IMG/VR virus record: IMGVR_UViG_3300027286_000002
Direction: 5' to 3' (one strand)
DNA from: a virus
Lineage: Duplodnaviria; Caudoviricetes
Length of the DNA stretch: 64,000 bases
Shown: positions 44,379 to 64,000 of the stretch, one piece after another
How the letters are laid out: every line of letters begins with the position of its first letter
Position numbering within the stretch: position 1 is the stretch's first letter
Made by a program: the position numbers and the translations under genes
The notes under the pieces: model-generated
Databases searched by the model: none
Seen by the model: the letters and a program-made list of their open reading frames with translations, nothing else
What the model was told of the DNA's origin: nothing

Positions 44379-45053
44379 TTACCATCTTCTTCTTGCTACT
44401 TTGGTTGTATGTAATGATAAATCTCTATCACCTTCTGCACCTAAATTCTCAATATCCTTATCGTTCTCTACAATCCTATTTTGTCTTAAATCTTCTCTTT
44501 TAGGTTTCAGCTTTGGTGATGGCTTTACCATTTCAGATACTCTTTCATCTTCTTTCTGATTATCACTTTTAGTAGCATATTTGCCATGTGGACAGTAAGA
44601 TGCAAACTTCTTATTATGTTTTGACTCGTCCATTTCCACTACATCAAAACAATATGGTGTTAGCTTTTTTCTTACATCTCTTAATGCCTGTGATATCAAT
44701 AAATATCCTTTTCTCTTTTTGATCTCATCATCTTTAATATCCAGCCATATTGATTGCAAATCTCTTAATACTTGTGCTTGACCTTCTAATATATCAAGAT
44801 ACTTTAAATCTTTATCTAGTGAGATCGCCTCTTCAAAGAATGCCTCAATCGTTAAGAAATGTTTTCTAATACAATCAGGACACCTCTTGCGAACATTATT
44901 TAAATGATCTTCCAATAAACAAGATTGCTTACAAATCTCTCTCATATTAAATAAAGGATTCATAATAGGCAATAAACCTAAATCACTTTCACTTGCTCTT
45001 TTTATTCTTGTCTTTAAAGAACTTAAACGAAATGATAAATCAAACATATACAT
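44379..45053 (-). CDS. conserved viral protein with LLEDHL...RCxDCxxKHF motif
   Basis: NPLFNMREICKQSCLLEDHL...KRCPDCIRKHFLTIEAFFEEA. Confidence 0.7.
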   Translation of the reverse strand: MYMFDLSFRLSSLKTRIKRASESDLGLLPIMNPLFNMREICKQSCLLEDHLNNVRKRCPDCIRKHFLTIEAFFEEAISLDKDLKYLDILEGQAQVLRDLQSIWLDIKDDEIKKRKGYLLISQALRDVRKKLTPYCFDVVEMDESKHNKKFASYCPHGKYATKSDNQKEDERVSEMVKPSPKLKPKREDLRQNRIVENDKDIENLGAEGDRDLSLHTTKVARRRW

Positions 45054-47384: not shown

Positions 47385-47778
47385 CCTTATTGATGTTGCG
47401 AAATACATTCTTGATACCTATAAAAGTACAACAGGCATAAAACTACATAAACTACTTTATTACTGCCAGCTAAACCACTATATGAAACATAATGGATTGC
47501 TTATGGATGATGCAGATTTTGTTCTTAAAGATAATGGCATCATTTGTAATACTCTTTACACTCATATCACTCAACTTGTATCAGGCAATGCGAACAGACT
47601 TACAAATGATGAAGTCTTGTCTATTAATAATACTTTAAATAGATATGGCAAATACACAATCCACGAATTGACTGCTCTTAATAAAAAAGAAATCCCTGTT
47701 GGTACTCTTATTTCTTTTCCTGCTATTCTTGATCTATATCTCTCATCATCTACTGCGACCAATCATACCACGAATTGA
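47377..47778 (+). CDS. Panacea/DUF4065 (SocA-like) antitoxin-domain protein, degenerate C-terminus
   Basis: LIDVAKYIL...IKLHKLLYYCQ N-terminal signature. Confidence 0.7.
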   Translation: MANLIDVAKYILDTYKSTTGIKLHKLLYYCQLNHYMKHNGLLMDDADFVLKDNGIICNTLYTHITQLVSGNANRLTNDEVLSINNTLNRYGKYTIHELTALNKKEIPVGTLISFPAILDLYLSSSTATNHTTN

Positions 47779-49587
47779 ATGTTTAGGTAATTTTGGTGCT
47801 ATACGATTTACTGCACTTCCTTCAGGCACTGCTCTGCCAAATACTAATCCTCTACCTAATGGTGATGATCTTGTTGAGCCACCACTAGACATAGATAAAA
47901 ATTTACCTTTACCTACATTTTGACTTGCTACCCAAAACATTCTCACTATCGCATCACTCATATCGTCATGCTTGCCTTCTGTTTGTGGTGCTTCTACTGT
48001 TATTAAATTCTTACTATGTACTGTCTGTTGCAATTCTAACATTTCTTGAATATATGGTTCATGTCCATCTACATCACAATTCTTTTTATTATATAACACC
48101 AATCTCTTATCCCACATCATATCTTTAAAGTTTTGAAACATTTGACTTGTTAATTGCTTTGTCATTTGTTGTGTCTTTAATTGTGTTATCCCTCGCTTAT
48201 TTAATGCTTGCTCAAATGGAATACCTGCCCATTGGTCAAATATCCCTTCTGTAATATAAAATTTCTTTGTGTAGTCTAAAACCCAATCTGCTACATCATC
48301 AAATTCTAATCTTTCTTTATCTGCATATTTACCTACACCTGCTTTAATCATATCTACTTTATCTAAAACTAACTTATCACCATCTAAATGTCCTATTGCT
48401 ACTGCACTACCATCACCTACCAAAGCAACATCTATTCCCATGAAATATGGTTTTCTTGCTACACCTCTTTCTACAGGTCTATGCTTTTCATCTACACAAG
48501 CTAATAAGTCTTTACTATCTTCTATCCAACCACGAGTTCTATCTGTAAATTCACCACCATATTCTGTAAAGAATACAGCTGGATTTTTTAAATAATGCTT
48601 TTCAAATTCTGTTGCAGGTACTGTTGGATTTACTTCCCATGTTGGTGCTTGCACACATAACATATTTTCTGATGCTTTGCCACCTTGCATACCAATTTGA
48701 AATAACTTATAAAACAAACCTTGTTTACCTAATGGTGATGAAATAGATATTACACGACCTTCTACGGGCCCAATAGGTATTCTACGATCTGTTGGATCTT
48801 TTGGTGAATAAGCTGATGTAGATGGTACAACTGCATTATATACTTCTTCTGCACCACTTTGACCTGTTTCGGTAAAGTGAGCGATCTCATCCATAATAAC
48901 ACAAATATTACCAGCACCACGAAGACCTTTAGCAACACAACTTCTAAATGTTACTTTTAAGGTAGCTTTGGCACTTGGATCTTCTATATACCTACCATAT
49001 CTTTCTACATCTTTAGGTGTTTGAAATCTAGCATAGGATTGTGTATTGTTTGCAGTGTAGGGTCCAAAGAAGGCACAATTGCGAAAGTGTCCAGAAACCT
49101 CGTTATATAGCAAACCTGCCTGATCTTTATCAGTAGCTACTGAAATGATCTGAATGTTATTACTTGCAGGCAATCCATAATACTCTTGTGGATCTTGTTT
49201 TCTAATAAGTTTATATGTTTCATAGGCGGCGATACAAGCAGAGATAGTTGTCTTACCCGATCTACGACCAATGGACAAAACCATTTCTCTTCTTTCTTTG
49301 CCCGGTATAACTTGACCAATATTACATCTACCTTCATCAAAGAGTAATTGTAGATATTCTTTTTCTGTAACATCTCTAAAATGTTGCCTTCGCCAATCAG
49401 AGATTTTAAATCTTTTCACATCATCTAGTTCAAGACCATAGTGTGCTTTAAGAATAACCTTTTGCACAGGGAATAAAGTCATACCTAGTCCCCAAGGTGC
49501 TTCAACAAAGTCAATAATATTTGCATCTTCTTTGGATTGAACACCTGCTTTGGCACTAGCTGAAATTGCAATCGTGGATAAAGCCAT
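47746..49587 (-). CDS. terL: terminase large subunit
   Basis: Walker A GRRSGKT, Walker B IMDEIAHF, nuclease MGIDVA and KHDDMSDA motifs. Confidence 0.92.
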   Translation of the reverse strand: MALSTIAISASAKAGVQSKEDANIIDFVEAPWGLGMTLFPVQKVILKAHYGLELDDVKRFKISDWRRQHFRDVTEKEYLQLLFDEGRCNIGQVIPGKERREMVLSIGRRSGKTTISACIAAYETYKLIRKQDPQEYYGLPASNNIQIISVATDKDQAGLLYNEVSGHFRNCAFFGPYTANNTQSYARFQTPKDVERYGRYIEDPSAKATLKVTFRSCVAKGLRGAGNICVIMDEIAHFTETGQSGAEEVYNAVVPSTSAYSPKDPTDRRIPIGPVEGRVISISSPLGKQGLFYKLFQIGMQGGKASENMLCVQAPTWEVNPTVPATEFEKHYLKNPAVFFTEYGGEFTDRTRGWIEDSKDLLACVDEKHRPVERGVARKPYFMGIDVALVGDGSAVAIGHLDGDKLVLDKVDMIKAGVGKYADKERLEFDDVADWVLDYTKKFYITEGIFDQWAGIPFEQALNKRGITQLKTQQMTKQLTSQMFQNFKDMMWDKRLVLYNKKNCDVDGHEPYIQEMLELQQTVHSKNLITVEAPQTEGKHDDMSDAIVRMFWVASQNVGKGKFLSMSSGGSTRSSPLGRGLVFGRAVPEGSAVNRIAPKLPKHSIRGMIGRSR

Positions 49588-49663
49588 AAATGAAACCTCC
49601 TTTATTTTATTTATCTATAATACCTATATAGATAAAACATTTAGAACAGGATTACATATAAAA

Positions 49664-50911
49664 ATGGCAATGACACAAAAACAATATGATGAAACCATCA
49701 AAGACCATTTTCTAAAAAAAATAGCTTTTGTTAAAGGCTATGTTACTAAAGATTGGACAGGTAATGGTGCATCTTATCCTTATGTTATTAAAAATAAATA
49801 TGGATATTGGTATCAAAGACCTGTTCAGATACCAGCGAATGATTATGGATTCCCATCCGAAATTACGATTGGTGGTTTGATACTACAATTAATAGAAGAT
49901 CACCAATCGGATTTGAAACTTTTAAATCCTCTTCCTAAGTATAAGTCTATGGAATATACAACTATTGGTTTTATTAATTTTATTATCAATAAAGATAGGA
50001 ATAAATTAAGATTAATTCCTAAAAACAAAGACAGCAATGCCTATGAAATATATCTTAGAAATATAAGTCCAAGGGCACACTCTGATTATGAAGATATTGT
50101 AAAAGATTTGGAAAATATAAAAACCTTAGTTTCTCAAATTAAACTTATTCTTACTTCTATAGATAGCAGTGAAGTAAGTGAAGATAGTGAAAGTGCTATT
50201 ATTAAATTAGCAAATGTTTCTCTACATATCATGTCAAATATGACTTTAAGCCAAACGATCGAATTTAAAAAAGCCTTATCTACAGCTATTGAAAAACTAA
50301 AAAACACACCTTTTAAAAAAGTTTTTTCTAATTCAGTAATCCTTGTTGGCACAGAAGACCAATCTGACTCTCCTCGTGGAAATGCTATTGCTCGTTATCG
50401 GGAATTAGCAGATCAAATTTTTTATTTTTTAAAATCGGATGGCAGTACTTATTCTAATAAAGAAATTTACATTACTTTGATTCATGAATACGGACATAGA
50501 TTTCATGCTCATTTTATGAAGAATGGTTATAATAATCCTAAAATCAAGAAATTATATTTAGAATCACAAGAAGGAACTAAAACTTGTTATCTTAAAAACC
50601 TACCAAAAATAGGTGATCCTCTTTCCGATTTAAGAGAAGATTGGTATTCTGTTAGAATGGCATCCAATGAATATTATTTAAAAAAGATAGTTGGTGATAA
50701 CTACATCTATGAGAATGAGCGAGGTAGGATTATAGTAGTTCCAAAGAAAGACATTCTTAAAAGAATCACCTGTCCTTCTCAATATGGGGCAAAAAATGAA
50801 AGGGAGTTTTTTGCTGAGATGTTTACTCTTATTGTTTTAGGTTTAGTAAAACCTAATCAAAAAGTACTAGCAGATAAGTTTATGAAAATCATAGAACAAG
50901 ATTCTATTTAA
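49664..50911 (+). CDS. zinc metallopeptidase, array member 1
   Basis: LIHEYGH...CYLKNLPKIGDPL...CPSQYGAKNEREFFAE; ATG 49664 after AGGA. Confidence 0.85.
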   Translation: MAMTQKQYDETIKDHFLKKIAFVKGYVTKDWTGNGASYPYVIKNKYGYWYQRPVQIPANDYGFPSEITIGGLILQLIEDHQSDLKLLNPLPKYKSMEYTTIGFINFIINKDRNKLRLIPKNKDSNAYEIYLRNISPRAHSDYEDIVKDLENIKTLVSQIKLILTSIDSSEVSEDSESAIIKLANVSLHIMSNMTLSQTIEFKKALSTAIEKLKNTPFKKVFSNSVILVGTEDQSDSPRGNAIARYRELADQIFYFLKSDGSTYSNKEIYITLIHEYGHRFHAHFMKNGYNNPKIKKLYLESQEGTKTCYLKNLPKIGDPLSDLREDWYSVRMASNEYYLKKIVGDNYIYENERGRIIVVPKKDILKRITCPSQYGAKNEREFFAEMFTLIVLGLVKPNQKVLADKFMKIIEQDSI

Positions 50912-50922
50912 ATATTCCTTTT

Positions 50923-50991
50923 ATTGCGAATAAGTTTATGGAAGGTCTTGCTGAGTATGCTGGTGAAAAAATAGGCAGTCAATTTCTTTAA
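50923..50991 (+). pseudogene. orphaned 3' end of a deleted array paralog, copy 1
   Basis: Translates IANKFMEGLAEYAGEKIGSQFL*, matching the (I/L)ADKFM C-terminal helix of array members. Confidence 0.7.
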
Positions 50992-51098
50992 AGATTATCA
51001 CTATCGTTCAAAGTGAATTGTCTTAAAACAGGTGTATTTAATATCTTATTTATAAACTTTGTTTAAATTAAACCACATTTAAACAAAGGTATTAAAAA

Positions 51099-52661
51099 AT
51101 GAAATTTTTAAAAAAAGCATATTCCGATGCAGAAGCACAGGTTATTGTTCAAGAATCAGAAACCTTACTAAATGACTTAACTAATACCTTATCCCTAGTG
51201 AAAACATTAGGATCAAGTGCATTATTTAATCCGATGAGTCCACTACGAGTAAAAATGAAATTATTACTAAAGCAGGTAGTTTCTCATCTTCCTCTTCAAA
51301 TGTTAACTATACTTATGGAAAAAAAAGAAATTCCTAGTAGTAAAGAAAGAGTGGCTTTAGGAAAAATTAAGACTCTTTTATCAAAGAAATCCTACAGCAC
51401 AGATGATTTTAGTATGTTCCAATCTGTTTTTACAGAGATGATTACATGGTGGAAAACTTGGAAAGATATCGATATGTCTGCTGAAGAAGGTGAAGATTTT
51501 TTTAAAGTTAAAGATATTAGAGTTCGTGTAACATCTAAAATCACACCTGCTCTTATGGTGGAATGTAAAGAAATTATTGAAAAAGCAGTGGAATTTATAA
51601 ATAAAAGCAATTTACCTAGATTTAAAGAAATGCTTAAGAACCTACAAATTTTTATCGTAGGTGGCAAAAAATCAAGCACCATTGCTTATTATAATCGTAT
51701 TGATGATTTTGTTTATTTACAACATCAATATATCAAATCTGAAGGAATTGAAGATAGTGTTCATAGTGTCATTCATGAACTTGGACACCGATATCTAAAT
51801 AAAATTGCAACAGACAGTCAAAAAACAGAATGGAAATCATTTTATAAAGATATCCAATCAAAACAATGGAGTTCTGATTCTGCAAAGTTTTATCCTCAAG
51901 TTGGCGACAGTCTTTCAAAAGATTTCAAAGTTAATACAAAACATAAATATCCTTTAGATGTTGTTAAAGAAGTAAGATTTGAACCCATGTTTGGTGAAAC
52001 TGTCCTTGTTCTTGAAAGTGGTGGCATGGTTTCAAGAGCAGGATTTAGAAAAACACTTGGTTTCCCAACTACATACTCAAGCGATTCACAAGATGAATTT
52101 TTCTGTGAAACTTTAGCTTTAATCCACATGAAAAAATTAAAACCTCTTTATGCAGATGTTAAAGCGAAATTCTTAGAGATTTGGCAAGGTGGTACTTCTG
52201 ATGATGATATTGTTGTTTATACACCACCTACAAAAACACCTGAAGTAAAGACAACACCTAAAGTTGTTGTTGTTCCACCTACACCTGTCACTTACACTGA
52301 ACCTACACCACCTAAAACTAGAAAACCTAGAACACCTAAAGCACCTGTACCTACACCTACACCTGTACCTACACCTGTACCTACACCTAAAGTACCTGTT
52401 GCTCCTGTGTTCACACCATCTGCACCTGTTGTTCAACAACCATCACCAACAGGATCAAAATTTAATCCATATGCAGATATACCTACCTATTTAAGTAGAT
52501 TTGAGAAAACATTAGCTAAAATCAAAATGACTAAAGATAGTTCTACTGAATGGGAAACTAAGTTTATGGCAAATATGATCAAGATGCTTAAACAAAATAT
52601 ACCATACACACCTAAACAACTTTTATGGATTGAAAAGACACTTCAAAAGTACTCTATCTAA
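51099..52661 (+). CDS. zinc metallopeptidase, array member 2, with Pro/Thr-rich linker and C-terminal helical domain
   Basis: VIHELGH...YPQVGDSL...TYSSDSQDEFFCE. Confidence 0.85.
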   Translation: MKFLKKAYSDAEAQVIVQESETLLNDLTNTLSLVKTLGSSALFNPMSPLRVKMKLLLKQVVSHLPLQMLTILMEKKEIPSSKERVALGKIKTLLSKKSYSTDDFSMFQSVFTEMITWWKTWKDIDMSAEEGEDFFKVKDIRVRVTSKITPALMVECKEIIEKAVEFINKSNLPRFKEMLKNLQIFIVGGKKSSTIAYYNRIDDFVYLQHQYIKSEGIEDSVHSVIHELGHRYLNKIATDSQKTEWKSFYKDIQSKQWSSDSAKFYPQVGDSLSKDFKVNTKHKYPLDVVKEVRFEPMFGETVLVLESGGMVSRAGFRKTLGFPTTYSSDSQDEFFCETLALIHMKKLKPLYADVKAKFLEIWQGGTSDDDIVVYTPPTKTPEVKTTPKVVVVPPTPVTYTEPTPPKTRKPRTPKAPVPTPTPVPTPVPTPKVPVAPVFTPSAPVVQQPSPTGSKFNPYADIPTYLSRFEKTLAKIKMTKDSSTEWETKFMANMIKMLKQNIPYTPKQLLWIEKTLQKYSI

Positions 52662-52714
52662 TATCTTATTTATATACATCTCTTAAATTAAACATTTGAA
52701 AAGAGAGATGTACC

Positions 52715-53839
52715 ATGAGTTCAATGAGTGATATTGAATTAGAACTAACAAAAAAACAAATTTTAGATGCTTTCAAACCTGTCAAAAAACGAACTAAAGA
52801 TTTTATGTTTGATCCTGAAAGTTATAGGTTAGCAAAATCTATCATTTCTTATTTAGAAAAAAACATACCAAAGTTAAAACTCAATAAACCTATATCTAGC
52901 TATATTACTTTTAAAAAAGAAATTGAAGATATTGATACTATAGGTTTAAATCCAAACGATAATATTAAGAGTAAGATCATAAATTTTACAGACACATTCG
53001 CTAAAGAAATCAAAAAGATTAAAATCACAGATACTCAAATTACAGAAAATCAAACCTCTTGGGAAGATGCCTCTAAACAAGAAATTGAGATTGTCATTCA
53101 ACAAGTACCTTCTTTAAATCTCAAATTCCTTTCGCAAGTCACTATGGATAATCTCATCAATTTTAAAACAAACATTCTTAAAGCTGTGGATAGAATCAAA
53201 ACATCACCTATCTCTAAACTACATAAAGCTGTCACAGGTGATTTAATTATTGCTACAGATAAAGACATTCAAAAAGAATATGGTATTAAAAAAACAAAAA
53301 CAGCTATTGCTTTTTATTCTCAAAACCATCAGATCGTTGTTTATTATATTGATGAAACTCAAAATGTAGATAAAAGAGAGATTTACATTTCTCTTATTCA
53401 TGAATTTGGTCATAAATTTCACGATAAATTCATGAAAGCAGGATTTGGAAGCACAGCAGTCAAAGTATTATATCTTGAAGCAATGAAATCTACAGAACAA
53501 TGTTACTTAGACCAATTACCTAAAATAGGTGATCCTCTTTCTAATTTAAGAGAAGATTGGTGGACAGTTAGGATGTCATCTGAAGATTATGTTTTAACTG
53601 AAATCCAAAAAAGTAACTTAGGTATTAAGTATGTCTACACTAACACGGAAGGTAAAACTATGCAAATAGATAAGAAAGACATTCTTAAACTAATAACTTG
53701 TCCTTCCCAATATGGAGCAAAAAACGAATTAGAATTTTTTGCTGAAATGGTAACACTTATCACTTTAGGATTAGTGAAACCATCTCAACAGGTTATTGCT
53801 GATAAGTTTATGGATATTATTAATAAGTATTCAATCTAG
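52715..53839 (+). CDS. zinc metallopeptidase, array member 3
   Basis: LIHEFGH...CPSQYGAKNELEFFAE. Confidence 0.85.
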   Translation: MSSMSDIELELTKKQILDAFKPVKKRTKDFMFDPESYRLAKSIISYLEKNIPKLKLNKPISSYITFKKEIEDIDTIGLNPNDNIKSKIINFTDTFAKEIKKIKITDTQITENQTSWEDASKQEIEIVIQQVPSLNLKFLSQVTMDNLINFKTNILKAVDRIKTSPISKLHKAVTGDLIIATDKDIQKEYGIKKTKTAIAFYSQNHQIVVYYIDETQNVDKREIYISLIHEFGHKFHDKFMKAGFGSTAVKVLYLEAMKSTEQCYLDQLPKIGDPLSNLREDWWTVRMSSEDYVLTEIQKSNLGIKYVYTNTEGKTMQIDKKDILKLITCPSQYGAKNELEFFAEMVTLITLGLVKPSQQVIADKFMDIINKYSI

Positions 53840-53857
53840 GCAAAAGAGAGATATATT

Positions 53858-54631
53858 ATGAACACCATGAGTGATATTGAATATGGATCAGATAGACTTA
53901 AAGCTGTTGTTATTGAAGTAGATGGTATTAAGATAAGCATTCAATCTCTTATCACAGAAAAAGACATAGAATTTTTTAAAGCACAATTATCTTTAGCAGG
54001 CAAGTATATAAGCCAATCCCCTATCCACTCTTTTAAAAAAGTTCTTTCTTCTGTATTCATTGATTTAGGTTCTCATGCTGACTTATATCAAAAATATAAT
54101 CAAAGTAAAAATACAGTAGCAGTATATAAAGGTAAAACTAAATCGATTGGTTTTTTCTTTGATTCAATAAAATCTCATCCAGCATACATTACTTTAATCC
54201 ATGAACTTGCACATCAGTTTCACCATACTTTGATTAAAAATAGCTTTGGGAATAAAGTTATTTTAGCTTTATTTAAAAGAGCAACCAATTCAAAGAGGCA
54301 ATGTGAATTATTCACTTTACCTAAAATAGGCGATCCCCTCTCTAACTTAAGGGAAAGTTGGTGGGCTGTTAAGAAAGGTTCAAGAGATGAATATTTATTA
54401 ACTAAAATCATTCGTGGTGTTTATTATTATGAGAATGGAAAAGGTGATGATACGATTTTTACTAAAGAAGAAATCATAGAGATGCTTGCCTGTCCATCTG
54501 AATATGGTGCTTCAAATGCAGAAGAATTTTTTGCTGAGATGGTAACACTTATTACTTTAGGATTAGTGAAACCTAGTCAACAATTAATAGCTGATAAGTT
54601 TATGAAAATCATAGAACAAGATTCTATTTAA
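53858..54631 (+). CDS. zinc metallopeptidase, array member 4 (minimal catalytic unit)
   Basis: LIHELAH...CPSEYGASNAEEFFAE. Confidence 0.85.
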   Translation: MNTMSDIEYGSDRLKAVVIEVDGIKISIQSLITEKDIEFFKAQLSLAGKYISQSPIHSFKKVLSSVFIDLGSHADLYQKYNQSKNTVAVYKGKTKSIGFFFDSIKSHPAYITLIHELAHQFHHTLIKNSFGNKVILALFKRATNSKRQCELFTLPKIGDPLSNLRESWWAVKKGSRDEYLLTKIIRGVYYYENGKGDDTIFTKEEIIEMLACPSEYGASNAEEFFAEMVTLITLGLVKPSQQLIADKFMKIIEQDSI

Positions 54632-54654
54632 ATAATCCTTTTATTTAATCTTCT

Positions 54655-54747
54655 TTGTAAACACCTAATCAACAAGTGATTGCGAATAAGTTTATGGAAG
54701 GTCTTGCTGAATATGCTGGTGAAAAAATAGGTAGTCAATTTCTTTAA
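54655..54747 (+). pseudogene. orphaned 3' end of a deleted array paralog, copy 2
   Basis: TPNQQVIANKFMEGLAEYAGEKIGSQFL* matches VKPNQKVLADKFM / VKPSQQVIADKFM. Confidence 0.75.
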
Positions 54748-54767
54748 AGAAAGAAAAGAGATATGTT

Positions 54768-55883
54768 ATGAACACAATGAGTGATATTGAATTTAAAAGA
54801 GCAAAAGAAGGGATTTTAAAACTCATCTCTAAGATTAGCAATATGACTATAGACGATGATGCTGAGAGTTTAGACTTGGGAAAAGCAATTTCAGCTATTG
54901 AAACCAATTTACCTAAACTAAAACTCACTTTTGAGAAAAGTTTTGAATTATCATCTATCATCAGTTCATATGAAAGAGAACTTAAAAAAAAACCAATATA
55001 TTTAAAAAACGAAAAAGCTGATCTGATTATGTTTTTGTCTTTTTTAAATAATTTTGCTAAGGAAATCGAAAAGATTAAAATCACAGACACTACCATTATT
55101 GAAAATAAGATGACTTGGGAAGATGCCTTAGATCAAGAAATCACTATTGTGATGCAAAAAGAACCTAACTTAAAGATCAAGATCATTTCGCCTGTATCTA
55201 TGGAAGACCTTTTAGACTTTAAGAAAAACATTCTTAGATCAATAGGTGCGATTAAAGCATCGCCTATTCCTAATTTTGATAAAGCATTAAAAGGTAATTT
55301 AATTTTAGGTACAGAGGCAGATATTAAAGAACAAACAGGTGTTACGACACCATATAAAGTAAGTGCTTTATATGATGAGAAAACAAACGATATTATCTAT
55401 TTTATAGATATTGCACCCTTTCAACCAGAAAGAGATATTTACACTACTTTTATACATGAGTTTGCACATAGATTCCATTACAACCATATTAAAGGTGGAT
55501 TTAAAAATCCTAAAATCAGAACACTATATGTTCAAGCATTTAGATCGGAAGAACAATGTTATTTAGACCAATTACCTAAAATAGGTGATCCTCTTTCTAA
55601 TTTAAGGGAAAATTGGTATACAGTTAGAAGGTCATCCGAAGAATGGATTTTATCTAAAATTAAAGATAACTCATATGCCTATAAAAACTCTAAGGGTGAA
55701 CTTAAGTATTTAGATAAGAAAGACATCCTTAGAAGGATAACCTGTCCAAGTCAATATGGTGCTAAAAATGAAGGTGAATTTTTTGCTGAAATGGTAACAC
55801 TTATCACTTTAGGATTAGTGAAACCATCTCAAAAATTAATAGCTGATAAGTTTATGGAAATTATTAATACAGAATTAATCTAA
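54768..55883 (+). CDS. zinc metallopeptidase, array member 5
   Basis: FIHEFAH...CPSQYGAKNEGEFFAE; N-terminal domain shared with member 3. Confidence 0.85.
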   Translation: MNTMSDIEFKRAKEGILKLISKISNMTIDDDAESLDLGKAISAIETNLPKLKLTFEKSFELSSIISSYERELKKKPIYLKNEKADLIMFLSFLNNFAKEIEKIKITDTTIIENKMTWEDALDQEITIVMQKEPNLKIKIISPVSMEDLLDFKKNILRSIGAIKASPIPNFDKALKGNLILGTEADIKEQTGVTTPYKVSALYDEKTNDIIYFIDIAPFQPERDIYTTFIHEFAHRFHYNHIKGGFKNPKIRTLYVQAFRSEEQCYLDQLPKIGDPLSNLRENWYTVRRSSEEWILSKIKDNSYAYKNSKGELKYLDKKDILRRITCPSQYGAKNEGEFFAEMVTLITLGLVKPSQKLIADKFMEIINTELI

Positions 55884-56032
55884 GCTGGTGGCAAAGTAGC
55901 ATCATGAATTTGTTTAGATAATTTCTCAAATCCTAATATATGAAAAACTTCACTTACAGGATGTCCAATTAAATTATGTAAAGACCATTGATATTTTTCA
56001 GGTAGTCTTGCGATTAGCTTTTGCATAGTCAT
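55880..56032 (-). CDS. small His-rich protein (50 aa, below the ORF-track cutoff)
   Basis: MTMQKLIARLPEKYQWSLHNLIGHPVSEVFHILGFEKLSKQIHDATLPPA*; AAAGGA SD and upstream TTGCCA / TATAAT-like boxes. Confidence 0.7.
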   Translation of the reverse strand: MTMQKLIARLPEKYQWSLHNLIGHPVSEVFHILGFEKLSKQIHDATLPPA

Positions 56033-56161
56033 ATCCTTTTATATGTTCTGTGTATCATTATTATATAGTGAAAAGAGTAAAAGAATGGCAAGCTGTTTTG
56101 AATCATAATCTTTTTATATATCTTATTCCTTATAGATATAAATTTAAAAAGGATAAAGATT

Positions 56162-57553
56162 ATGAATTGGGATGATGAACAACAAGTCTTAGAACAAGCT
56201 AAAAACTCAATATATGGAATTAGAGATGCTAGTCCTAGACTTAAAAACAATTTACCTTTTCTTTTAAAAGCTGTTAAAGGAAGAATCACAAATTTTAATT
56301 ATGCTTCTGAAGAACTTCAAAATAATGAAATCTTATATAACACTGTCAAAAAAACCATCTTATCCCAACCAATGGATTTAAGATATATACCTAAGAAATT
56401 TAAAGACGATAAAGAAATAATCTTAAAAGCAGTAAAAGATTATTATGGTAATTTTGAATATGCTAGTGACAGGTTAAAACAAGATGAAGATATTATCCGA
56501 ACCACTTTAAAAAGCATACCATCCGACAGATTATCTTTTTCAGAAGATTTTATAAAAAGTATGGATATTCAAAATCCTTATCTCATCTTAGATACTTTTA
56601 AAGAACATACCTTTGTAATAAACTATCTCAATGAGAAATTAAAATCAGATAAAACATTCATGCTTAATGCTATTAAAATAAATCCATACTTTTTTCTGTA
56701 TGCAGATGATAGTTTAAAGAACGATAGGATGTTTATCATAGATGCTATTAATATAAATCCTGATATCAGAATTATGGATGATAAGATACCTTTAGAAATA
56801 AGACAAGATCCTGAGATTGTTAAAGATGAAAATAGACAGGTCACAAAAGTTAAGCTACGAGAACTACCAATTAATCTCTTCTTTTTCAATATCAGTAAAG
56901 AAGAGATATTGATTTTCAGAAAGAATTTAAAAGAAACTATCCAGCTGATAAAATCATCTAAAATACCAAATTTCAGTGATGTCTTAAATGGCAACATTTA
57001 TATTGGTACTAGAGAAGATCTCATTCTTAATTTTGGTGGATCAGGCATAGATGAAAATGTAGGTGCTTACTATATTGAAAAAATAGGTGTCTTTTATATC
57101 CTACCAACAAAAATAGGAAGTGTTAGTACTCTCATCCACGAACTTGCACATAAATACCATTATACTTTGATTAAGGATGGATATCGAAATTATGCAATCA
57201 TGCAATTTTTCCGATTTTCCCAATATAGAGAATGTAGTTTTCCACAGGTAGGTGATCCACTTTCAGATCTAAGGGAAGATTGGTGGATTGTTAAGAAAAT
57301 GGCATCTGATGAATACTATTTAAAAAGAATACTCTCTAATAATGCCTATGAATATGAGAATAAGAACAAAGATAAAAAAGTCATACCTTATGGTAAAATG
57401 ATTGAACTAATCAACTGTCCTTCTCAATATGGTGCTAAAAACCATAAAGAGTTTGTTGCTGAGTTGTGTACTCTTATCACTTTAAATAAAATGAAATCAT
57501 CTATGCAAAAACTAGCTGATGACTTTATCCGTATGCTTGAGGAAGAAATCTAA
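56162..57553 (+). CDS. zinc metallopeptidase with DUF4116-like helical repeats, array member 6
   Basis: NWDDEQQVL, DDKEIILKAV and YADDSLKNDR repeats; LIHELAH...CPSQYGAKNHKEFVAE. Confidence 0.85.
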   Translation: MNWDDEQQVLEQAKNSIYGIRDASPRLKNNLPFLLKAVKGRITNFNYASEELQNNEILYNTVKKTILSQPMDLRYIPKKFKDDKEIILKAVKDYYGNFEYASDRLKQDEDIIRTTLKSIPSDRLSFSEDFIKSMDIQNPYLILDTFKEHTFVINYLNEKLKSDKTFMLNAIKINPYFFLYADDSLKNDRMFIIDAININPDIRIMDDKIPLEIRQDPEIVKDENRQVTKVKLRELPINLFFFNISKEEILIFRKNLKETIQLIKSSKIPNFSDVLNGNIYIGTREDLILNFGGSGIDENVGAYYIEKIGVFYILPTKIGSVSTLIHELAHKYHYTLIKDGYRNYAIMQFFRFSQYRECSFPQVGDPLSDLREDWWIVKKMASDEYYLKRILSNNAYEYENKNKDKKVIPYGKMIELINCPSQYGAKNHKEFVAELCTLITLNKMKSSMQKLADDFIRMLEEEI

Positions 57554-57617
57554 TCACTCATAATCTTTTTATATATCTTATCTTATATATATATCTACAT
57601 AAGAAAGGACAAAGATT

Positions 57618-58778
57618 ATGAATTGGGATGATAAAGAACAAGTCTTAAAGGCAGTACAAAACAATTTCAATAATTATCTATATGCAAGCAATAGATTGAA
57701 AAAAGATGATGATGTTATCGTAGCTACTTTAAAAAGCATACCCACAAGTAAAATCCCTTTCCAAACCAATTTTATAAAAAGTATGAATATCCAAAATCCA
57801 TATCTCATCTTAGAAGGGTTTAAAGAATATTCATTAGCAATAACTCTTGTAAACCAAAAGTTAAGATCTGATGAAGCATTCATGCTCTATGCTATTAAAC
57901 TAAATCCATACTTTTTTGTATATGCAGATGAGAGTTTAAAAAACGATAGGAATTTTCTTATTAATGCTATTAATGTAAATCCTGAAATTAGAATTACATA
58001 TGACATCATTCCTTTAGAATTAAGACAAGATCCTGAGATTGTTAAAGATGAAAATAGACAGATCACAAAAGTTAGACTACGAGAACTACCAATTAATCTT
58101 TTCTTTTTCAATATCAGTAAAAAAGATGTCTTAGCTTTCAGAAAAGATTTAAAAGAAACTATCCAGCTGATAAAATCATCTAGATTACCAAATTTCAATG
58201 CTGTCTTAAATGGCAACATTTATATCGGATCACAAGAAGATCTCATTCTTAATTTTGGTGGTGGTGTATATGTGAATGAAAACACAAGTGCTTACTATAC
58301 TGAAAAAGCAGGTATCTTTTATATCCTACCAACAAGAGGAAGTCTTGTTAGCACTCTCATCCATGAGTTTAGTCATAAATACCATTACACTTTGATTAAA
58401 GAAGGATATGGAAATGATAAAGTCAAAAGATTTGCTCAATTTGCTAAATTTAGAGAATGCACTTTTCCAAAAATAGGAGATCCACTTTCTAACCTAAGAG
58501 AAGATTGGTGGCTTGTTAAAATGGCATCAGATGAATATTATTTAAAAAAGATAGATAGAAAGAAAAACTATATCTATAAAAATATTGCAGGTGATGAAAA
58601 AATCATCAGTTCGGATAAAATGAGTCAGCTGATCAACTGTCCTTCTGAATATAGTATGAAAAACCATAGAGAATTTGTTGCTGAATTATGCACTCTTATC
58701 ACTTTAAATAAAGTCACACCAGCTATGCAAAGTCTTGCTGATGATTTTATCACTCTACTCGAAGAAGAAAGAATATAG
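57618..58778 (+). CDS. zinc metallopeptidase with DUF4116-like repeats, array member 7
   Basis: Near-identical DNA blocks with member 6; LIHEFSH...CPSEYSMKNHREFVAE. Confidence 0.85.
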   Translation: MNWDDKEQVLKAVQNNFNNYLYASNRLKKDDDVIVATLKSIPTSKIPFQTNFIKSMNIQNPYLILEGFKEYSLAITLVNQKLRSDEAFMLYAIKLNPYFFVYADESLKNDRNFLINAINVNPEIRITYDIIPLELRQDPEIVKDENRQITKVRLRELPINLFFFNISKKDVLAFRKDLKETIQLIKSSRLPNFNAVLNGNIYIGSQEDLILNFGGGVYVNENTSAYYTEKAGIFYILPTRGSLVSTLIHEFSHKYHYTLIKEGYGNDKVKRFAQFAKFRECTFPKIGDPLSNLREDWWLVKMASDEYYLKKIDRKKNYIYKNIAGDEKIISSDKMSQLINCPSEYSMKNHREFVAELCTLITLNKVTPAMQSLADDFITLLEEERI

Positions 58779-58781
58779 AAT

Positions 58782-60023
58782 ATGAAACAAGCAGGTACAA
58801 ACATCAGATTAAATTTCGTACCACCGTCTTTTAGAGATGATAAAGAAATCGTACTACAAGCAGTAGGTGATTCATATGAAGAATATCTATATGTAAGTGA
58901 CAGGCTAAAGCAAGACAAAGATGTTATTCGTACTACTCTAAAAAACACACCTAAATTTTATATCGTGGATGTCTTAAGATGGATGGATTACAAAACCAAT
59001 CCATTATTTAAAGATGAGAAATTTCTCTTAGAATTAATAAAAGAAAATCCACATATCTTCTTTGAGATAGATTTAGCATATCGTAAAGATAAAAAGTTCA
59101 TGCTTGAGGCTATTAAAATAAATCATAATTTTTACAATTATGCAGACTATTCTTTAAAAGAACCTACATTATATGCAGATGGCAATATAAAACGATATTG
59201 GTTTATTGAAAATGCTATTGATGCTAATCCTGCTGTGAGATATCTTGACATACCAAAAGAAGTAGCTAAAAGTCCATATCAAATTGAACCACGAGCAGGC
59301 AAAAGAGTTACTATTAAACATCCATACTTGCCTTTGCTTTTAACTTTTATTAACATTAATAAATATACTCTTTTAGAATTTAAAGAAAACTTGAAACAAG
59401 TCACTTCTTTAATCAAAAAGTCAAAAATCCCAAAGTTTAGTAAAGTCTTAAAAGATAATATTTATATTGCGAATAAAGAAAACCTTAAAAAGTATTTTCT
59501 TTTAGAAGGTTTAGACGATACAAGTGCATTGTACTCAAAAAACCTAGATGATATCTTTTATGTCATGCCATCTAAATCATCTTCAATCTATGATCTTGTG
59601 CATGAATTTGGACATAAATTTCAGAATACTATGATTAAAGATGGTATGGAAAATGAAGCTATTTCTTCTTTCTTTATGAAACTGCAAAATGATACCTGCT
59701 CTATGCCAAAGCTAGGTGATCCATTATCTGATCTAAGAGAAGATTGGTGGAATGTTAAAATGAGTTCAAGTAATGAGTTTTATTTGAATGAGATAGATAG
59801 AAATAAAAACTACATTTATAAAAATGATCAAGGTGTGGAAAAAACCATCAGTTCAGATAAAATGAAAGAACTAATGGTTTGTCCAAGTCAATATGGTGCA
59901 TCTAATGTACAAGAATTTTTTGCTGAAATGGTAGCACTTATTACTTTAGGTAAAGTGAAACCTAATCAACAATGGATTGCAGATAAACTGATTAAGATCA
60001 TTAAAGATAATTTAGAAGTCTAA
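58782..60023 (+). CDS. zinc metallopeptidase with DUF4116-like repeats, array member 8
   Basis: DDKEIVLQAV repeat; LVHEFGH...CPSQYGASNVQEFFAE. Confidence 0.85.
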   Translation: MKQAGTNIRLNFVPPSFRDDKEIVLQAVGDSYEEYLYVSDRLKQDKDVIRTTLKNTPKFYIVDVLRWMDYKTNPLFKDEKFLLELIKENPHIFFEIDLAYRKDKKFMLEAIKINHNFYNYADYSLKEPTLYADGNIKRYWFIENAIDANPAVRYLDIPKEVAKSPYQIEPRAGKRVTIKHPYLPLLLTFININKYTLLEFKENLKQVTSLIKKSKIPKFSKVLKDNIYIANKENLKKYFLLEGLDDTSALYSKNLDDIFYVMPSKSSSIYDLVHEFGHKFQNTMIKDGMENEAISSFFMKLQNDTCSMPKLGDPLSDLREDWWNVKMSSSNEFYLNEIDRNKNYIYKNDQGVEKTISSDKMKELMVCPSQYGASNVQEFFAEMVALITLGKVKPNQQWIADKLIKIIKDNLEV

Positions 60024-60572
60024 ATAATATGCCACTAAAGATAATCTAACTTCTGCAGGAAAAAACACTGTGTAATCATATTTTTTCCAAAACTTTTCTG
60101 CCAAAATTTTTACTTGTTCTTCATACATAGATGGTGGAAATTTTTTCAAAATGCCTGACTTTTCTACTTCTACCATTAACTTGTATTGAATGAGTTCTCT
60201 ATCACTATTAAATGGTGGATCATCTGATAACATATTCTCAATCACTTCTCTAATGATAGGAAAATCAAAATAGAAGTAAAATGGTTTGCTTGCATGAAAA
60301 TCACTTGCAATTCTAGAAATGTGTTGAAACCAATCTAATGGAAATTCATCACGAATATCTGTAATCTCACCATCACGGATTGCTCTATCCATCATTTTTT
60401 GATCAGATCCTAAATCTCTTGTTTTAGGATTGTTATCTACAAGTTCTAATAACAATTCATGTACATTTGTACCTCTAGTTTGACTCAAATCCATAAAATG
60501 CTCACCTCTAAATAGAGAATGATTTTGATACATCTTTAGTAAACTCGATCTACGACTTCTATGACTATACAT
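60012..60572 (-). CDS. hypothetical protein inserted in the array
   Basis: 186-aa ORF, GAAAGGA SD. Confidence 0.65.
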   Translation of the reverse strand: MYSHRSRRSSLLKMYQNHSLFRGEHFMDLSQTRGTNVHELLLELVDNNPKTRDLGSDQKMMDRAIRDGEITDIRDEFPLDWFQHISRIASDFHASKPFYFYFDFPIIREVIENMLSDDPPFNSDRELIQYKLMVEVEKSGILKKFPPSMYEEQVKILAEKFWKKYDYTVFFPAEVRLSLVAYYLDF

Positions 60573-60636
60573 ATTGTATATCCTTTCTTTTTTCAGCTAT
60601 GCCTATTAACAATAGACTTTATAAATAAAGTAAAAA

Positions 60637-60906
60637 TTAAAGTGTTTCTCTGATCTTGAGTATTTGGTTTAATGACAGTGGATTTGTCATGCTGTTTAAC
60701 TCTAGATCAAATCTTACTTTTTTTGACTGCCATTCAATAATGGTAAATTGAATTTTTTCTTTTTGCACATACTCAAAGGTATATTGCTTACCATTTGTTT
60801 CAACAGTATTCCAAAAAAGATTTTCTTTAGACTTTAATCTGTGCAATGGGAAAACACCTAATACAGTACAGATCTTTTCATTTACTCTAAAAATATGTTC
60901 GTTCAT
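60637..60906 (-). CDS. small hypothetical protein inserted in the array
   Basis: 89-aa ORF, GAAAGGT SD, preceded by the TTGCAATAA-N12-AGTGTTTA motif. Confidence 0.7.
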   Translation of the reverse strand: MNEHIFRVNEKICTVLGVFPLHRLKSKENLFWNTVETNGKQYTFEYVQKEKIQFTIIEWQSKKVRFDLELNSMTNPLSLNQILKIRETL

Positions 60907-60942
60907 GTCTTTTACCTTTCTTAACGACCATTCATATATATG

Positions 60943-60971
60943 TAAACACTTAAGATAAAAGTTTATTGCAA
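60943..60971 (-). promoter_or_regulatory. conserved TTGCAATAA-N12-AGTGTTTA motif, copy 3
   Basis: Exact motif match 37 nt upstream of the ATG at 60906. Confidence 0.7.
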
Positions 60972-61034
60972 CCTCGACTAATTTTTATTTTATATATCCG
61001 TCTTTTTATATACATCTTAAAAAACAGGTAAAAA

Positions 61035-62714
61035 ATGACTAAGTATAGACAAGCTGAATATGAAAATTGGGATGATTATAATTTTGTTTTAAAAAGAATA
61101 CAAAATGGTAATGGTAGCGAAATTGCTAAAGCAAGCAGGGATTTAAAATCCAATCCTACATTGAGAGAAATTGCTATTGAGAATGGTGCTTTAATATCAG
61201 ATACTTATATGCCTACTAGTAGATACATAAGAATTTCTGATCCAAATCTTGCTATTAAAGGTTTGAAAAATGGTGGCAGTGATCAACTTGGATATTTAGA
61301 TAGTAGTCTTACTAATAATAAAGAAGTAGTTTTAGTAGCAGTAAAATTAGATCCAAATAATCTTATGTTTGCAAGTGATGAACTTAAAGATGACTATGAT
61401 GTTGTTAGCCTTGCTGTTAAGATAGATGCTAACACTATTCAATTTGCTAGTGATCGTTTAAAAAATGATCTCACTATCGGAAACTACATCCTTGAAAAAA
61501 ATCCACAAGTATTCGTTTCATTAATGAATGACTTAAAGACAAATATTGATTTTGCCATTCAAAGACTTTCACAAAACCTACAAGACCTTAGATTTTTCCC
61601 AAACCTAGTAAATCACATTCAAGTTCAGAAACTTCTTAAAAATAAAAAACTAATTTTGCAATCTGCTGGCATCACACCTGATGCCAAATCAGTTTATCAT
61701 ATTTTCAATATGGTAAATGAAAATCATTTATCTTTCCTTGATCACATAGCAAATGATTTAAAAAACGATGAAAGTTTTATGCTTAAACTTTTAGAAGTAA
61801 CACCAAAAGCATATACCATCCTTCCTGATTCTTTAAAAAATGATCCTGTGTTTATAAATAAAGCAATGGATGTGTCTTTGATTGACACCTATTTGAACTT
61901 TGATGAAGATAAAAAGAAAGAACTTGCAGGAAAAATAACAACTTTAAGTTTGAGTACTGCACCTGCTTTAGATTTTATATTCTATGGTAGAATTACAACA
62001 CCGGGTCTTATCCTTTTTAAAAAACATTTGAACTTCACAATTAAAACCATCAAAGGTTCGCCTTTAAAGAACTTCAAAAAAGTCTTTTCAGCAGGTAAAG
62101 TTATAGTTGGTCAAAAAATAGACCTTCTAGCATCTAATATTTTACCATCTGAAATTGCTAGTGAATTACAAACATTTAAAGGTATACTTGCTGGCTTTTT
62201 TGATCCACGATTTGTAAATAATGTTTACATCATCTTAAATGGTGAAACATATAAAAAATCCGATGCCATTAATCTTATTCATGAACTTGCACATAAATTT
62301 CAATATCACCATATAAAGAATGGTATGGAAAACAAAAGACTTAAAGATTTATTTGACCTAGCTAAAAATCCAATTGGTGATGAATATTGCGAACTGCCAC
62401 AAATAGGTGATCCTTTATCTAATCTTAGAGATCCTAAACTTTGGGGCATTAATAATAGATTAGCTAATTCCGAATATTATTTAAAGAAGATTGACCAATG
62501 GAACTATATCTATGAAAATGAACAAAAAAAACAAAAAATCTTACCTAGATCTGAAATCAGAATACTTAGCAGATGTCCATCTCAATATTCTAAAATGGCT
62601 CACTATGAATGGTTTGCTGAAATGGCTACTCTTGCTACTTTAAACCTTGCCAAGACTTCTGAAAAATTGATTGTTGAAGAATTTATTAAAATTGTTAATG
62701 AAGAATCTATTTAA
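61035..62714 (+). CDS. zinc metallopeptidase with multiple DUF4116-like repeats, array member 9
   Basis: NNKEVVLVAV, FASDELKDD and FASDRLKND repeats; LIHELAH...CPSQYSKMAHYEWFAE. Confidence 0.85.
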   Translation: MTKYRQAEYENWDDYNFVLKRIQNGNGSEIAKASRDLKSNPTLREIAIENGALISDTYMPTSRYIRISDPNLAIKGLKNGGSDQLGYLDSSLTNNKEVVLVAVKLDPNNLMFASDELKDDYDVVSLAVKIDANTIQFASDRLKNDLTIGNYILEKNPQVFVSLMNDLKTNIDFAIQRLSQNLQDLRFFPNLVNHIQVQKLLKNKKLILQSAGITPDAKSVYHIFNMVNENHLSFLDHIANDLKNDESFMLKLLEVTPKAYTILPDSLKNDPVFINKAMDVSLIDTYLNFDEDKKKELAGKITTLSLSTAPALDFIFYGRITTPGLILFKKHLNFTIKTIKGSPLKNFKKVFSAGKVIVGQKIDLLASNILPSEIASELQTFKGILAGFFDPRFVNNVYIILNGETYKKSDAINLIHELAHKFQYHHIKNGMENKRLKDLFDLAKNPIGDEYCELPQIGDPLSNLRDPKLWGINNRLANSEYYLKKIDQWNYIYENEQKKQKILPRSEIRILSRCPSQYSKMAHYEWFAEMATLATLNLAKTSEKLIVEEFIKIVNEESI

Positions 62715-63409
62715 CCTTTTTCCATCCTAGCTTTTGCTTCTTTCATCCATTCCTCTGCATCTATCATTTTACCAAAATTCGCAAATATACTTTCTGTCAT
62801 TTCAGGTCTTACTTTCGCTTCATCACAGGCTCGCCTAAATGTTTCAGCTAAAAACCCAAACAAAATCTTAAATGCTTTTGAATCCATATCTATCGTTTGG
62901 TTTGATAACATTTCTTTCTTTTTAATCCAAGCATCACCTACTGCCTTTAAAGCATTTACTCTACGAATAGATAACTGACTTGTATTCTCACCTTTTCTTT
63001 CTGCCTCTGATCTCTCAAATTTTAATGATGCTGATTCTTCTGCCAAACCTTCAATCACTGAATTTAATACATCACCACTCTCAATATTTGTTATTACATT
63101 GCCTAATATCTTATCCTGCATTAAAGTATTCATCTTATTTAATTGCTGATTTGCTACATTAAGCTGTGTAGATGACATTGCTATCTGTGCTTGTTGAATT
63201 GTAGGCACAGGTGTACTTGGTGTATTTGTTGGACTAGATGCAGGTTTAGTTTTACGACCCGGTTCGGTATTCATCGTAATTGGTAAACCTGTTGTTGGAT
63301 GCAACATCACTTGATCTGTTGGTTTCAATTCATCAGGTTTCCTCCATACAATCTTTCCTAAATCATCTATTACTTTTACTCTTGCTACATTGGGATCAAT
63401 CACTGTCAT
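62711..63409 (-). CDS. helical protein, candidate terminase small subunit
   Basis: Co-oriented with and directly upstream of terL if the array is removed; central coiled coil; function inferred from position only. Confidence 0.35.
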   Translation of the reverse strand: MTVIDPNVARVKVIDDLGKIVWRKPDELKPTDQVMLHPTTGLPITMNTEPGRKTKPASSPTNTPSTPVPTIQQAQIAMSSTQLNVANQQLNKMNTLMQDKILGNVITNIESGDVLNSVIEGLAEESASLKFERSEAERKGENTSQLSIRRVNALKAVGDAWIKKKEMLSNQTIDMDSKAFKILFGFLAETFRRACDEAKVRPEMTESIFANFGKMIDAEEWMKEAKARMEKG

Positions 63410-63455
63410 TTATTCATATCCTTTTTTAGATTAGATTTTTATATTAGTATTATAT

Positions 63456-64000
63456 CTAAAAAGGTGCAATAAGGTCTAATATTGTTTGCTTATTCTTTTC
63501 TAATGATCCAACCACTCGCATTGCATCTGCTTGTGGTGCATCTAAACTTGTTATTGTTAAGTTATCTACTGCCACTTCTGTTTTCACATAGACACCACCT
63601 ACTAAATTATAAGTAATTGTGTTCTGTGTTAATGGATTATATACCATCTCTACTGTATTTCCTGATGGTGCTATAAATCTTACTTTTTGATCTGCTGTAC
63701 GAATATCTGTAAATACATAGATAGGAATAAACTTAATGCTTTTAATAAAATTACTAAAGTCATTTGCCACAGGTGATTCCTTTAATTCACTCATTGGCAA
63801 AATTGACTTTTCTCTCACCACTTGCTTTCTTCCTAACTTATGATCATCTGATGGATCATATAGCAAATTGTTTTCCATATCATAAATTAAGAAAGGTGGA
63901 ACACCATTAAACAAATCATAGCTATATTGCAAAAACTGAACAATTAAATTATCAAACAAAGACACTGACTGCACAATCACTTGTGTATCATTATCGGGAT
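63456..64000 (-). CDS. hypothetical protein, 5'-truncated by the window edge
   Basis: The frame stays open from the GTG at 63980 to the window end. Confidence 0.6.
   Translation of the reverse strand, partial: PDNDTQVIVQSVSLFDNLIVQFLQYSYDLFNGVPPFLIYDMENNLLYDPSDDHKLGRKQVVREKSILPMSELKESPVANDFSNFIKSIKFIPIYVFTDIRTADQKVRFIAPSGNTVEMVYNPLTQNTITYNLVGGVYVKTEVAVDNLTITSLDAPQADAMRVVGSLEKNKQTILDLIAPF

Follow-up and report, generated by a model that had tools for sequence, protein, structure and literature searches.

Candidate lethal-factor-like zinc metallopeptidases form an accessory array of up to nine paralogs in freshwater huge phages

Conceptually, the closest described systems to the locus reported here are the zincin-type peptidases of phages and other mobile elements. 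The MPTase domains of polyvalent proteins, that of ArdC included, are believed to accompany or process incoming proteins, or else to act against proteins of the host (PMC5512222, PMC7213743), and the metalloprotease domain of ArdC is required to overcome restriction (PMC7213743). Jumbo phages carry one to three variable copies of SprT-like and ArdC-like zincins, for which host proteins have been suggested as targets (PMC7824862), and the idea that phages deploy zincins of variable copy number against host proteins is already in the literature (PMC7824862, PMC5512222). Here we report nine co-oriented genes (W1 to W9) for putative zinc metallopeptidases resembling the catalytic domain of anthrax lethal factor (LF), in a 64,000-nucleotide stretch of DNA from a virus of the Caudoviricetes (IMG/VR record IMGVR_UViG_3300027286_000002; hereafter the window). 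Paralog expansions are common in huge phages. To our knowledge, the characterised counter-defence proteins of phages are mostly inhibitors, nucleases or modifying enzymes, and the proteolytic destruction of host factors by phage-encoded enzymes has barely been explored. We found no published account in the literature of this family, of fusions between DUF4116 and the peptidase, or of such arrays; to that extent the statement of an earlier note on this DNA, that it knew of no described phage system with such an architecture, still stands, but the concept is less unprecedented than the note supposed. Our results suggest a previously undescribed LF-like family whose expansion, at one fixed hypervariable site, has reached up to nine copies.

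All nine genes lie on the plus strand and span positions 49664-62714 of the window, according to the listing of open reading frames (ORFs), and a profile of their shared domain finds these nine copies in the window and no others. Each product carries an HExxH motif (variants in Table 1), and the downstream pattern Y-x6-E-[FW]-[FV]-[AC]-E is matched by nine of the nine paralogs, exactly as the earlier note had described them. Fourteen columns are invariant in the nine-paralog alignment (H, E, H, the P..GD.LS block, L, P, Y, E, E and L), and the same 14 stay invariant after the addition of 23 metagenomic relatives (32 core sequences); the catalytic residues are also invariant in 71 distant relatives. 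The further claim that none of the nine had lost catalytic residues is confirmed by this alignment, in which all motif residues are invariant. The LF motif quoted in the note was also correct: HMMER aligns the Y..E..E block of the family to SYGRTNEAEFFAEAF of the LF chains in the PDB; in LF this block, an E-x-x-x-E helix with the third zinc ligand Glu and a Tyr seven residues upstream, comprises Y728/E735/E739.

The catalytic domain, of ~230 residues, has no model match in Pfam, PHROGs, NCBIfam or PADLOC, and its assignment comes from structure comparison and profile searches. AlphaFold models of W4 and W7, obtained from different alignments, were compared exhaustively with 48,161 solved chains, and the best match of both was the LF catalytic domain 1yqy_A (W4: Z 11.1, root-mean-square deviation 3.4, 176 residues; W7: Z 13.0, root-mean-square deviation 3.7, 175 residues), with PPEP-3 (Z 9.6 for W4 and 11.1 for W7) and PPEP-2 (Z 9.3 and 10.0) next, vs. 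Z 7.6 and 9.0 for the best unrelated zincins. Searched against the PDB, a profile of the nine domains ranked Wss1 first (E 0.082) and LF second (E 0.094); a profile of the 71 distant relatives ranked LF best (E 0.001) and then PPEP-3, all but one weak row being LF- or ATLF-like, and the HMMER alignment of that search places the Y..E..E block on YGRTNEAEFFAE and HExxH on HEFGH of the LF chains. Pfam ATLF is touched below threshold by 26 of 90 distant relatives (best E 1.3e-4), more than any other family is, and in a language-model feature search ATLF clusters were the first and commonest of the named ones. By sequence and model, then, the domain has the fold and motifs of the LF/PPEP group (M34-like gluzincins) and yet is a family separate from Pfam ATLF. 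This upholds part of the LF-type assignment made in the earlier note, since the zincin fold and the motifs are there and structure comparison ranks LF first, but the proteins are not members of Pfam ATLF/M34 when judged by its own model, and they carry a large insertion.

That insertion, of 55-60 residues, is specific to the family. It separates the zinc-ligand helices and thereby lengthens the stretch from HExxH (on helix 109-125 of the W4 model) to the Glu that is the third ligand, which measures 103-111 residues in eight paralogs, vs. 49 in LF. The W4 model renders it as a helix, a loop and a three-stranded beta-meander; its LPKIGDPLSNLREDWW stretch equals the zinc motifs in conservation, and a Cys pair brackets the insertion in eight of the nine paralogs, W2 lacking the pair. 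W2 is of the distant, apparently ancestral type, and the other eight are of a derived type with the Cys-bracketed insertion. Profiles of the distant type and of the window domains match with an hhalign probability of 100%.

Exhaustive searching of 1.84 billion representative proteins with a profile turned up 530 relatives, 51 of them at E<=1e-30, and all relatives that were looked up come from metagenome assemblies or metagenome-assembled genomes (MAGs). Among 185,579 prokaryote species (one genome each), the core type was absent and the distant type occurred on two MAG contigs only. Among 50,697 phage records, tblastn with W4 gave no match, the distant-type relative P0103 was found in two uncultured records only, W6 matched through its DUF4116 part only, and no cultured phage with the peptidase domain was present; DUF4116 itself is present in a cultured Fusobacterium phage. 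The family is thus almost entirely limited to phages and metagenomes. In multidomain distant relatives the peptidase domain stands at the extreme C-terminus, behind partners that include Topoisomerase IB, HAD_SAK_1, C39 peptidase, pentapeptide repeats and DUF4116, and the contigs of distant relatives also carry EF-Tu, chaperonin and HU genes, which resembles the gene content of huge phages. Stand-alone catalytic domains are common as well: W4 is one, and many relatives measure 225-270 aa.

The array occupies an accessory, hypervariable island between the gene for the terminase large subunit (TerL) and a conserved gene, p232, in freshwater huge phages of one clade (~270-350 kb). Copies in this island are rapidly gained, lost and recombined, yet individual paralogs endure as orthologs under purifying selection. 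A relative with TerL 97% and portal 99% identical to those of the window (L002) has four copies in the island; one of 316 kb with TerL 93% identical (L001) has two copies and an 83-residue fragment; two with TerL 82-87% identical and interrupted by an intein (L010 and L003) have four copies; and L012 has six, together with one divergent copy past the right anchor. The TerL identities cover the relatives other than L012, whose TerL lies outside the fetched locus. The TerL intein (L010 5183-8029, and L003) contains a LAGLIDADG endonuclease, and the window TerL matches the interrupted protein in two pieces. The 316 kb relative (G001, IMGVR_UViG_3300046779_001841) also has a second, divergent cluster of two copies at 73696-75500, far from the TerL island; a search seeded with this cluster, which may miss members, found nothing on the 350 kb contig that carries the array.

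A maximum-likelihood tree of 35 domains joins most window paralogs to a copy from a different phage and not to one another, and we therefore regard the paralogs as old and individually retained. The supported pairs are W2/L002_10737, W9/L002_12810, W8/L012_8205 and W5/L012_3378, with W3 within the W5 clade, and W6/W7 is the sole recent duplicate among the nine; W2, whose N-terminal region is unique, groups with L002_10737, L012_12457 and L007-L009. Ratios of nonsynonymous to synonymous change (dN/dS) are 0.20-0.33 for ortholog pairs, and similar in the N-terminal and catalytic parts. Between the same two genomes, dN is 0.18-0.23 for the array genes, vs. 0.010-0.025 for TerL, portal and p232 (dN/dS 0.02-0.05). 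The array proteins thus evolve 10-20 times faster than their neighbours and are still under constraint; together with the invariant catalytic residues, these ratios indicate, in line with the selection suggested in the earlier note, that the genes are maintained.

The array also carries marks of exchange between its members. W3 and W5, otherwise 52% identical as proteins with a dS of about 0.64, share exact identities of 57 nt (53732-53788 = 55776-55832) and 44 nt (53507-53550 = 55563-55606), patches that look like gene conversion. W1 and W4 have an identical 3' end of 42 nt, and each of the two relic gene ends (Table 1) follows a gene with that 3' end; the relic tail EKIGSQFL survives in an intact metagenomic relative (P0033). 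Identical patches and relic gene ends together show ongoing recombination. Logan contigs of freshwater runs (X9, X20, X18 and X6) break repeatedly within the array (window 47500-63600), and some contig joints bridge far points, e.g. 56026 to 62715, which skips W6-W9. These joints suggest co-occurring strains with differing island content, an indication that is not firm in fragmented contigs of mixed strains.

Upstream of the catalytic domain the nine proteins diverge: the N-terminal part is DUF4116 in four of nine, a common module of 140 aa in two, unique in two and missing in one. The DUF4116 assignments are well above the PF13475 gathering score of 24.9 (bit scores 121.6 for W6, 74.9 for W7, 65.9 for W8 and 86.1 for W9). 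Alpha-solenoids are typical protein-binding scaffolds. The DUF4116 part of the W7 model is all-alpha, and DUF4116 has been modelled earlier as an alpha-solenoid (PMC8078820). A candidate explanation of the W3/W5 module as a degenerate copy of the peptidase domain (compare LF domain I vs. domain IV) was rejected at an hhalign probability of 0.5%. W2 alone continues beyond the peptidase domain, into a Pro/Thr-rich linker of ~70 residues and then an extra C-terminal domain of ~90 residues (52194-52658), which has no family match and is missing from the L002 ortholog. None of the nine has a hydrophobic N-terminus, a signal peptide or a transmembrane segment (maximum Kyte-Doolittle 19-mer 1.37), so the hydropathy of all nine agrees with the absence of signal peptides claimed earlier. 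The C-terminal tail -ESI, considered as a tag, is just the end of the last helix and is variable in relatives.

We propose that the nine proteins would be soluble zinc endopeptidases acting in the infected cytoplasm, in which the variable N-terminal module would direct each catalytic domain to a different protein substrate. The substrates would most likely be host proteins, of defence or housekeeping, or proteins of a competing element, and the repertoire would turn over as targets change. Intact catalytic residues, an LF-like fold, variable N-terminal modules, a lack of export signals, accessory behaviour and purifying selection all argue for such effectors, and on this evidence from sequence, models and analogy we hold the view that the array encodes cytoplasmic endopeptidases aimed at host or competitor proteins through variable N-terminal modules with belief and doubt in equal measure. 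A more specific proposal, which we put forward tentatively and think rather less probable, is that of a modular counter-defence arsenal in which each paralog couples an LF-like cutting domain to its own recognition module, a DUF4116 solenoid or another, for capture of a specific host immune protein, the island content tracks the defences of local hosts, and the 2 to 9 copies are reshuffled by duplication, gene conversion and loss.

Several observations weigh against cytoplasmic endopeptidases aimed at host or competitor proteins. The sequence likeness to LF is borderline (PDB profile E-values 0.001-0.3), and PF07737 (ATLF) matches none of the nine at E<=1; no similarity to anti-defence or defence families was found, and a search of public sequencing runs returned no RNA runs containing the locus. 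A dN/dS below 1 is no proof of an arms race, and the higher dN could stem from relaxed constraint. The island is set within the head and packaging module, a position that suits virion delivery or roles in processing equally well, and the viral structural neighbours of the domain are often fused to MuF-like or minor capsid proteins or to virion RNA polymerases. A rival account, which we judge unlikely and which differs mainly in delivery and timing, builds on such observations: the proteins would be packaged in the virion and ejected with the DNA, as the internal proteins of T4 and the peptidase domains of polyvalent proteins are, and would act at once on host proteins or on co-injected cargo. 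The island adjoins the terminase, portal, prohead protease and capsid genes, the distant relatives carry the domain C-terminally in large multidomain proteins on huge-phage-like contigs, the structural neighbours just named point the same way, and peptidase domains of this kind have been described in packaged polyvalent proteins (PMC5512222). However, the array lies on the strand opposite to the head genes, its matches to virion proteins in structure are weak (E 1e-4 to 1e-1), no recognisable signal for targeting to the capsid could be established, and copy number varies between phages with near-identical heads.

The same location within the head module could also suit peptidases of morphogenesis, which would cut the phage's own scaffold, internal proteins or polyprotein-like precursors in assembly, and a maturation role has been suggested for extra zincins in some groups of jumbo phages (PMC7824862). 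We consider this improbable: a dedicated prohead protease is already present (Table 1), copy number ranges from 2 to 9 in phages whose TerL, portal or both are 82-99% identical, dN is 10-20 times that of the head genes, and the N-terminal modules are variable. Such traits suit accessory genes and not core assembly genes. Highly improbable, in our view, is a domain that is no protease at all and serves as a binding or encapsidation module, or as a hydrolase of a non-protein substrate, with the N-terminal modules as the real effectors. In distant relatives, other enzymatic domains always precede this one, and encapsidation of the N4 virion RNA polymerase needs a region containing the peptidase domain (PMC5512222), but about 100 diverse sequences strictly keep all catalytic residues, and stand-alone catalytic domains are common, so the domain has a function by itself. 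The LF-like fold brings to mind effectors against eukaryotes as well, be they grazers or the bacterium's own hosts, on the model of LF itself and of phage-borne toxins. This is barely credible for proteins that lack both a secretion signal and a translocation domain and have no component for receptor binding in their vicinity, in a family missing from cellular genomes, with a partner module, DUF4116, that occurs in a cultured Fusobacterium phage too.

The phage setting claimed in the earlier note is evident from the neighbouring genes: TerL adjoins the array, and genes for portal, prohead protease and major head protein come next. The longest contig with array proteins has 350,655 bp and represents a freshwater huge phage of roughly 350 kb; the window TerL is 68% identical to that of LR745208.1, an uncultured phage of 485 kb. 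Since the gene order of the array is also found on independent ENA and JGI contigs, and since 20 riverine, lake or freshwater runs contain 74-98% of its sampled words, we consider the array real and not an assembly artefact. Its features and anchors are collected in Table 1, in which the ATG at 49664 was chosen as the start of W1 over a TTG at 49550 that would overlap TerL. Scans for sigma-70 promoters and for terminators stayed at or below the shuffle expectation; an upstream word shared by array genes, TATATCTTAT, has no enrichment in the window, and AT-rich words like TTTATATA stand upstream of genes of every kind.

Table 1. Genes of the array, elements embedded in it and flanking genes, by position in the window (pLDDT, predicted local distance difference test)
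Feature	Position	Strand	Length	Description
Prohead protease	39327-40823			
TerL (terminase large subunit)	47746-49587	-		left anchor of the island; divergent from W1
W1	49664-50911	+	415 aa	unique N-terminal region of ~185 aa and peptidase domain; HEYGH, YGAKNEREFFAE
Relic of a paralog 3' end	50923-50994	+	72 nt	encodes ...IANKFMEGLAEYAGEKIGSQFL*; 97% identity to 54679-54750
W2	51099-52661	+	520 aa	apparently ancestral ('wide-family') peptidase domain; HELGHRY, PQVGD, FPTTY...EFFCE
W3	52715-53839	+	374 aa	N-terminal module of ~140 aa common to W5, and peptidase domain; HEFGH
W4	53858-54631	+	257 aa	stand-alone catalytic domain; HELAH; model pLDDT 83.6
Second copy of the relic gene end	54679-54750	+	72 nt	
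W5	54768-55883	+	371 aa	N-terminal class of W3; HEFAH; 95% identity to L012 ortholog
ORF within the array	55880-56026	-	48 aa	called as a gene on independent contigs
W6	56162-57553	+	463 aa	DUF4116 repeats (5 stretches; PF13475, E 8.9e-36) and peptidase domain; HELAH
W7	57618-58778	+	386 aa	DUF4116 all-alpha module (residues 1-136) and peptidase domain; HEFSH; model pLDDT 86.7
W8	58782-60023	+	413 aa	DUF4116 and peptidase domain; HEFGH; ortholog L012_8205
Gene within the array	60012-60572	-	186 aa	also found at this site in L002, with 70% aa identity
Gene within the array	60637-60906	-	89 aa	also found at this site in relatives; conserved in L002 and L001
W9	61035-62714	+	559 aa	longest DUF4116 region and peptidase domain; HELAH, YSKMAHYEWFAE; ortholog L002_12810
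p232	62711-63409	-	232 aa	conserved gene; right anchor; its end overlaps the W9 end by 4 nt

Other genes of the head region are recorded here in their own right. A LAGLIDADG/HNH-type homing endonuclease gene (34359-35309, minus strand) adjoins the major head protein gene. Between the prohead protease and the portal-side gene p224 lies a gene for a protein of 1178 aa (40836-44372, minus strand), which has no family match in Pfam or PHROGs and reaches only 47-54% identity in relatives that have a 97-99% identical portal. A segment homologous to p224 (44379-45053) occurs in a 655-aa protein of an unrelated metagenomic contig (L018, 6996-10050), where the gene for this protein stands directly upstream of that for a distant-type peptidase, in a long operon of co-oriented genes, one of which is for a virion structural protein; annotation of the neighbours of this distant relative gave nothing useful.

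We regard the locus as a well-defined, experimentally tractable candidate for a protease-based arsenal of phage effectors: the fold model is confident, a single genome supplies nine natural variants, and islands that naturally contain 2, 4, 6 and 9 copies can be compared. If individual paralogs do cut distinct host proteins, the family would define a phage effector class that is new and could supply specific endopeptidases, and it would show in structural terms how evolution redirects an LF-type scaffold. Should they form a counter-defence arsenal, the island would be a protease-based counterpart to the gene islands of anti-CRISPR and anti-restriction functions; assembly enzymes would instead be of specialist interest only.

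Compared with known systems, the putative peptidases are nearest to domain IV of LF and to PPEP-2 and PPEP-3 (MEROPS M34, PF07737), which share their predicted fold and took the three highest structural ranks for both W4 and W7. They have in common with LF the HExxH motif, the block of Tyr, 7 residues, Glu, 3 residues, Glu (aligned to SYGRTNEAEFFAEAF as above), and a catalytic domain that is C-terminal with other modules before it. Unlike LF and the PPEPs, they have no Pfam ATLF match, contain the insertion of 55-60 residues (LPKIGDPLSNLREDWW and beta-meander), have the Cys pair in eight of nine and a spacing from HExxH to Glu of 103-111 vs. about 45-50 residues, and are phage-encoded and predicted to be cytoplasmic, lacking parts for secretion or for binding of protective antigen. 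MtfA/Peptidase_M90 and the DUF2268-type zincins are likewise small cytoplasmic gluzincins, with weak Pfam touches (E 0.02), but these are bacterial housekeeping or regulatory proteins that lack the insertion and form no arrays.

With the MPTase domains of polyvalent proteins, including ArdC (PF18818; PMC5512222, PMC7213743), the window proteins share the character of mobile-element peptidases related to LF by profile methods, and their distant relatives also sit in large multidomain proteins on huge-phage-like contigs. The window proteins, however, have no PF18818 match, which 5 of 90 distant relatives touch weakly, and they form a multi-gene array of proteins of 257-559 aa with at most one other module each, not one giant polypeptide. 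The SprT-like and ArdC-like metallopeptidases of jumbo phages (PMC7824862) are similar in being zincins of patchy distribution whose copy number varies between related phages. They belong to another zincin family, in contrast to the window with its up to nine LF-like copies, which are set at a fixed hypervariable site beside TerL and combined with DUF4116 and other N-terminal modules.

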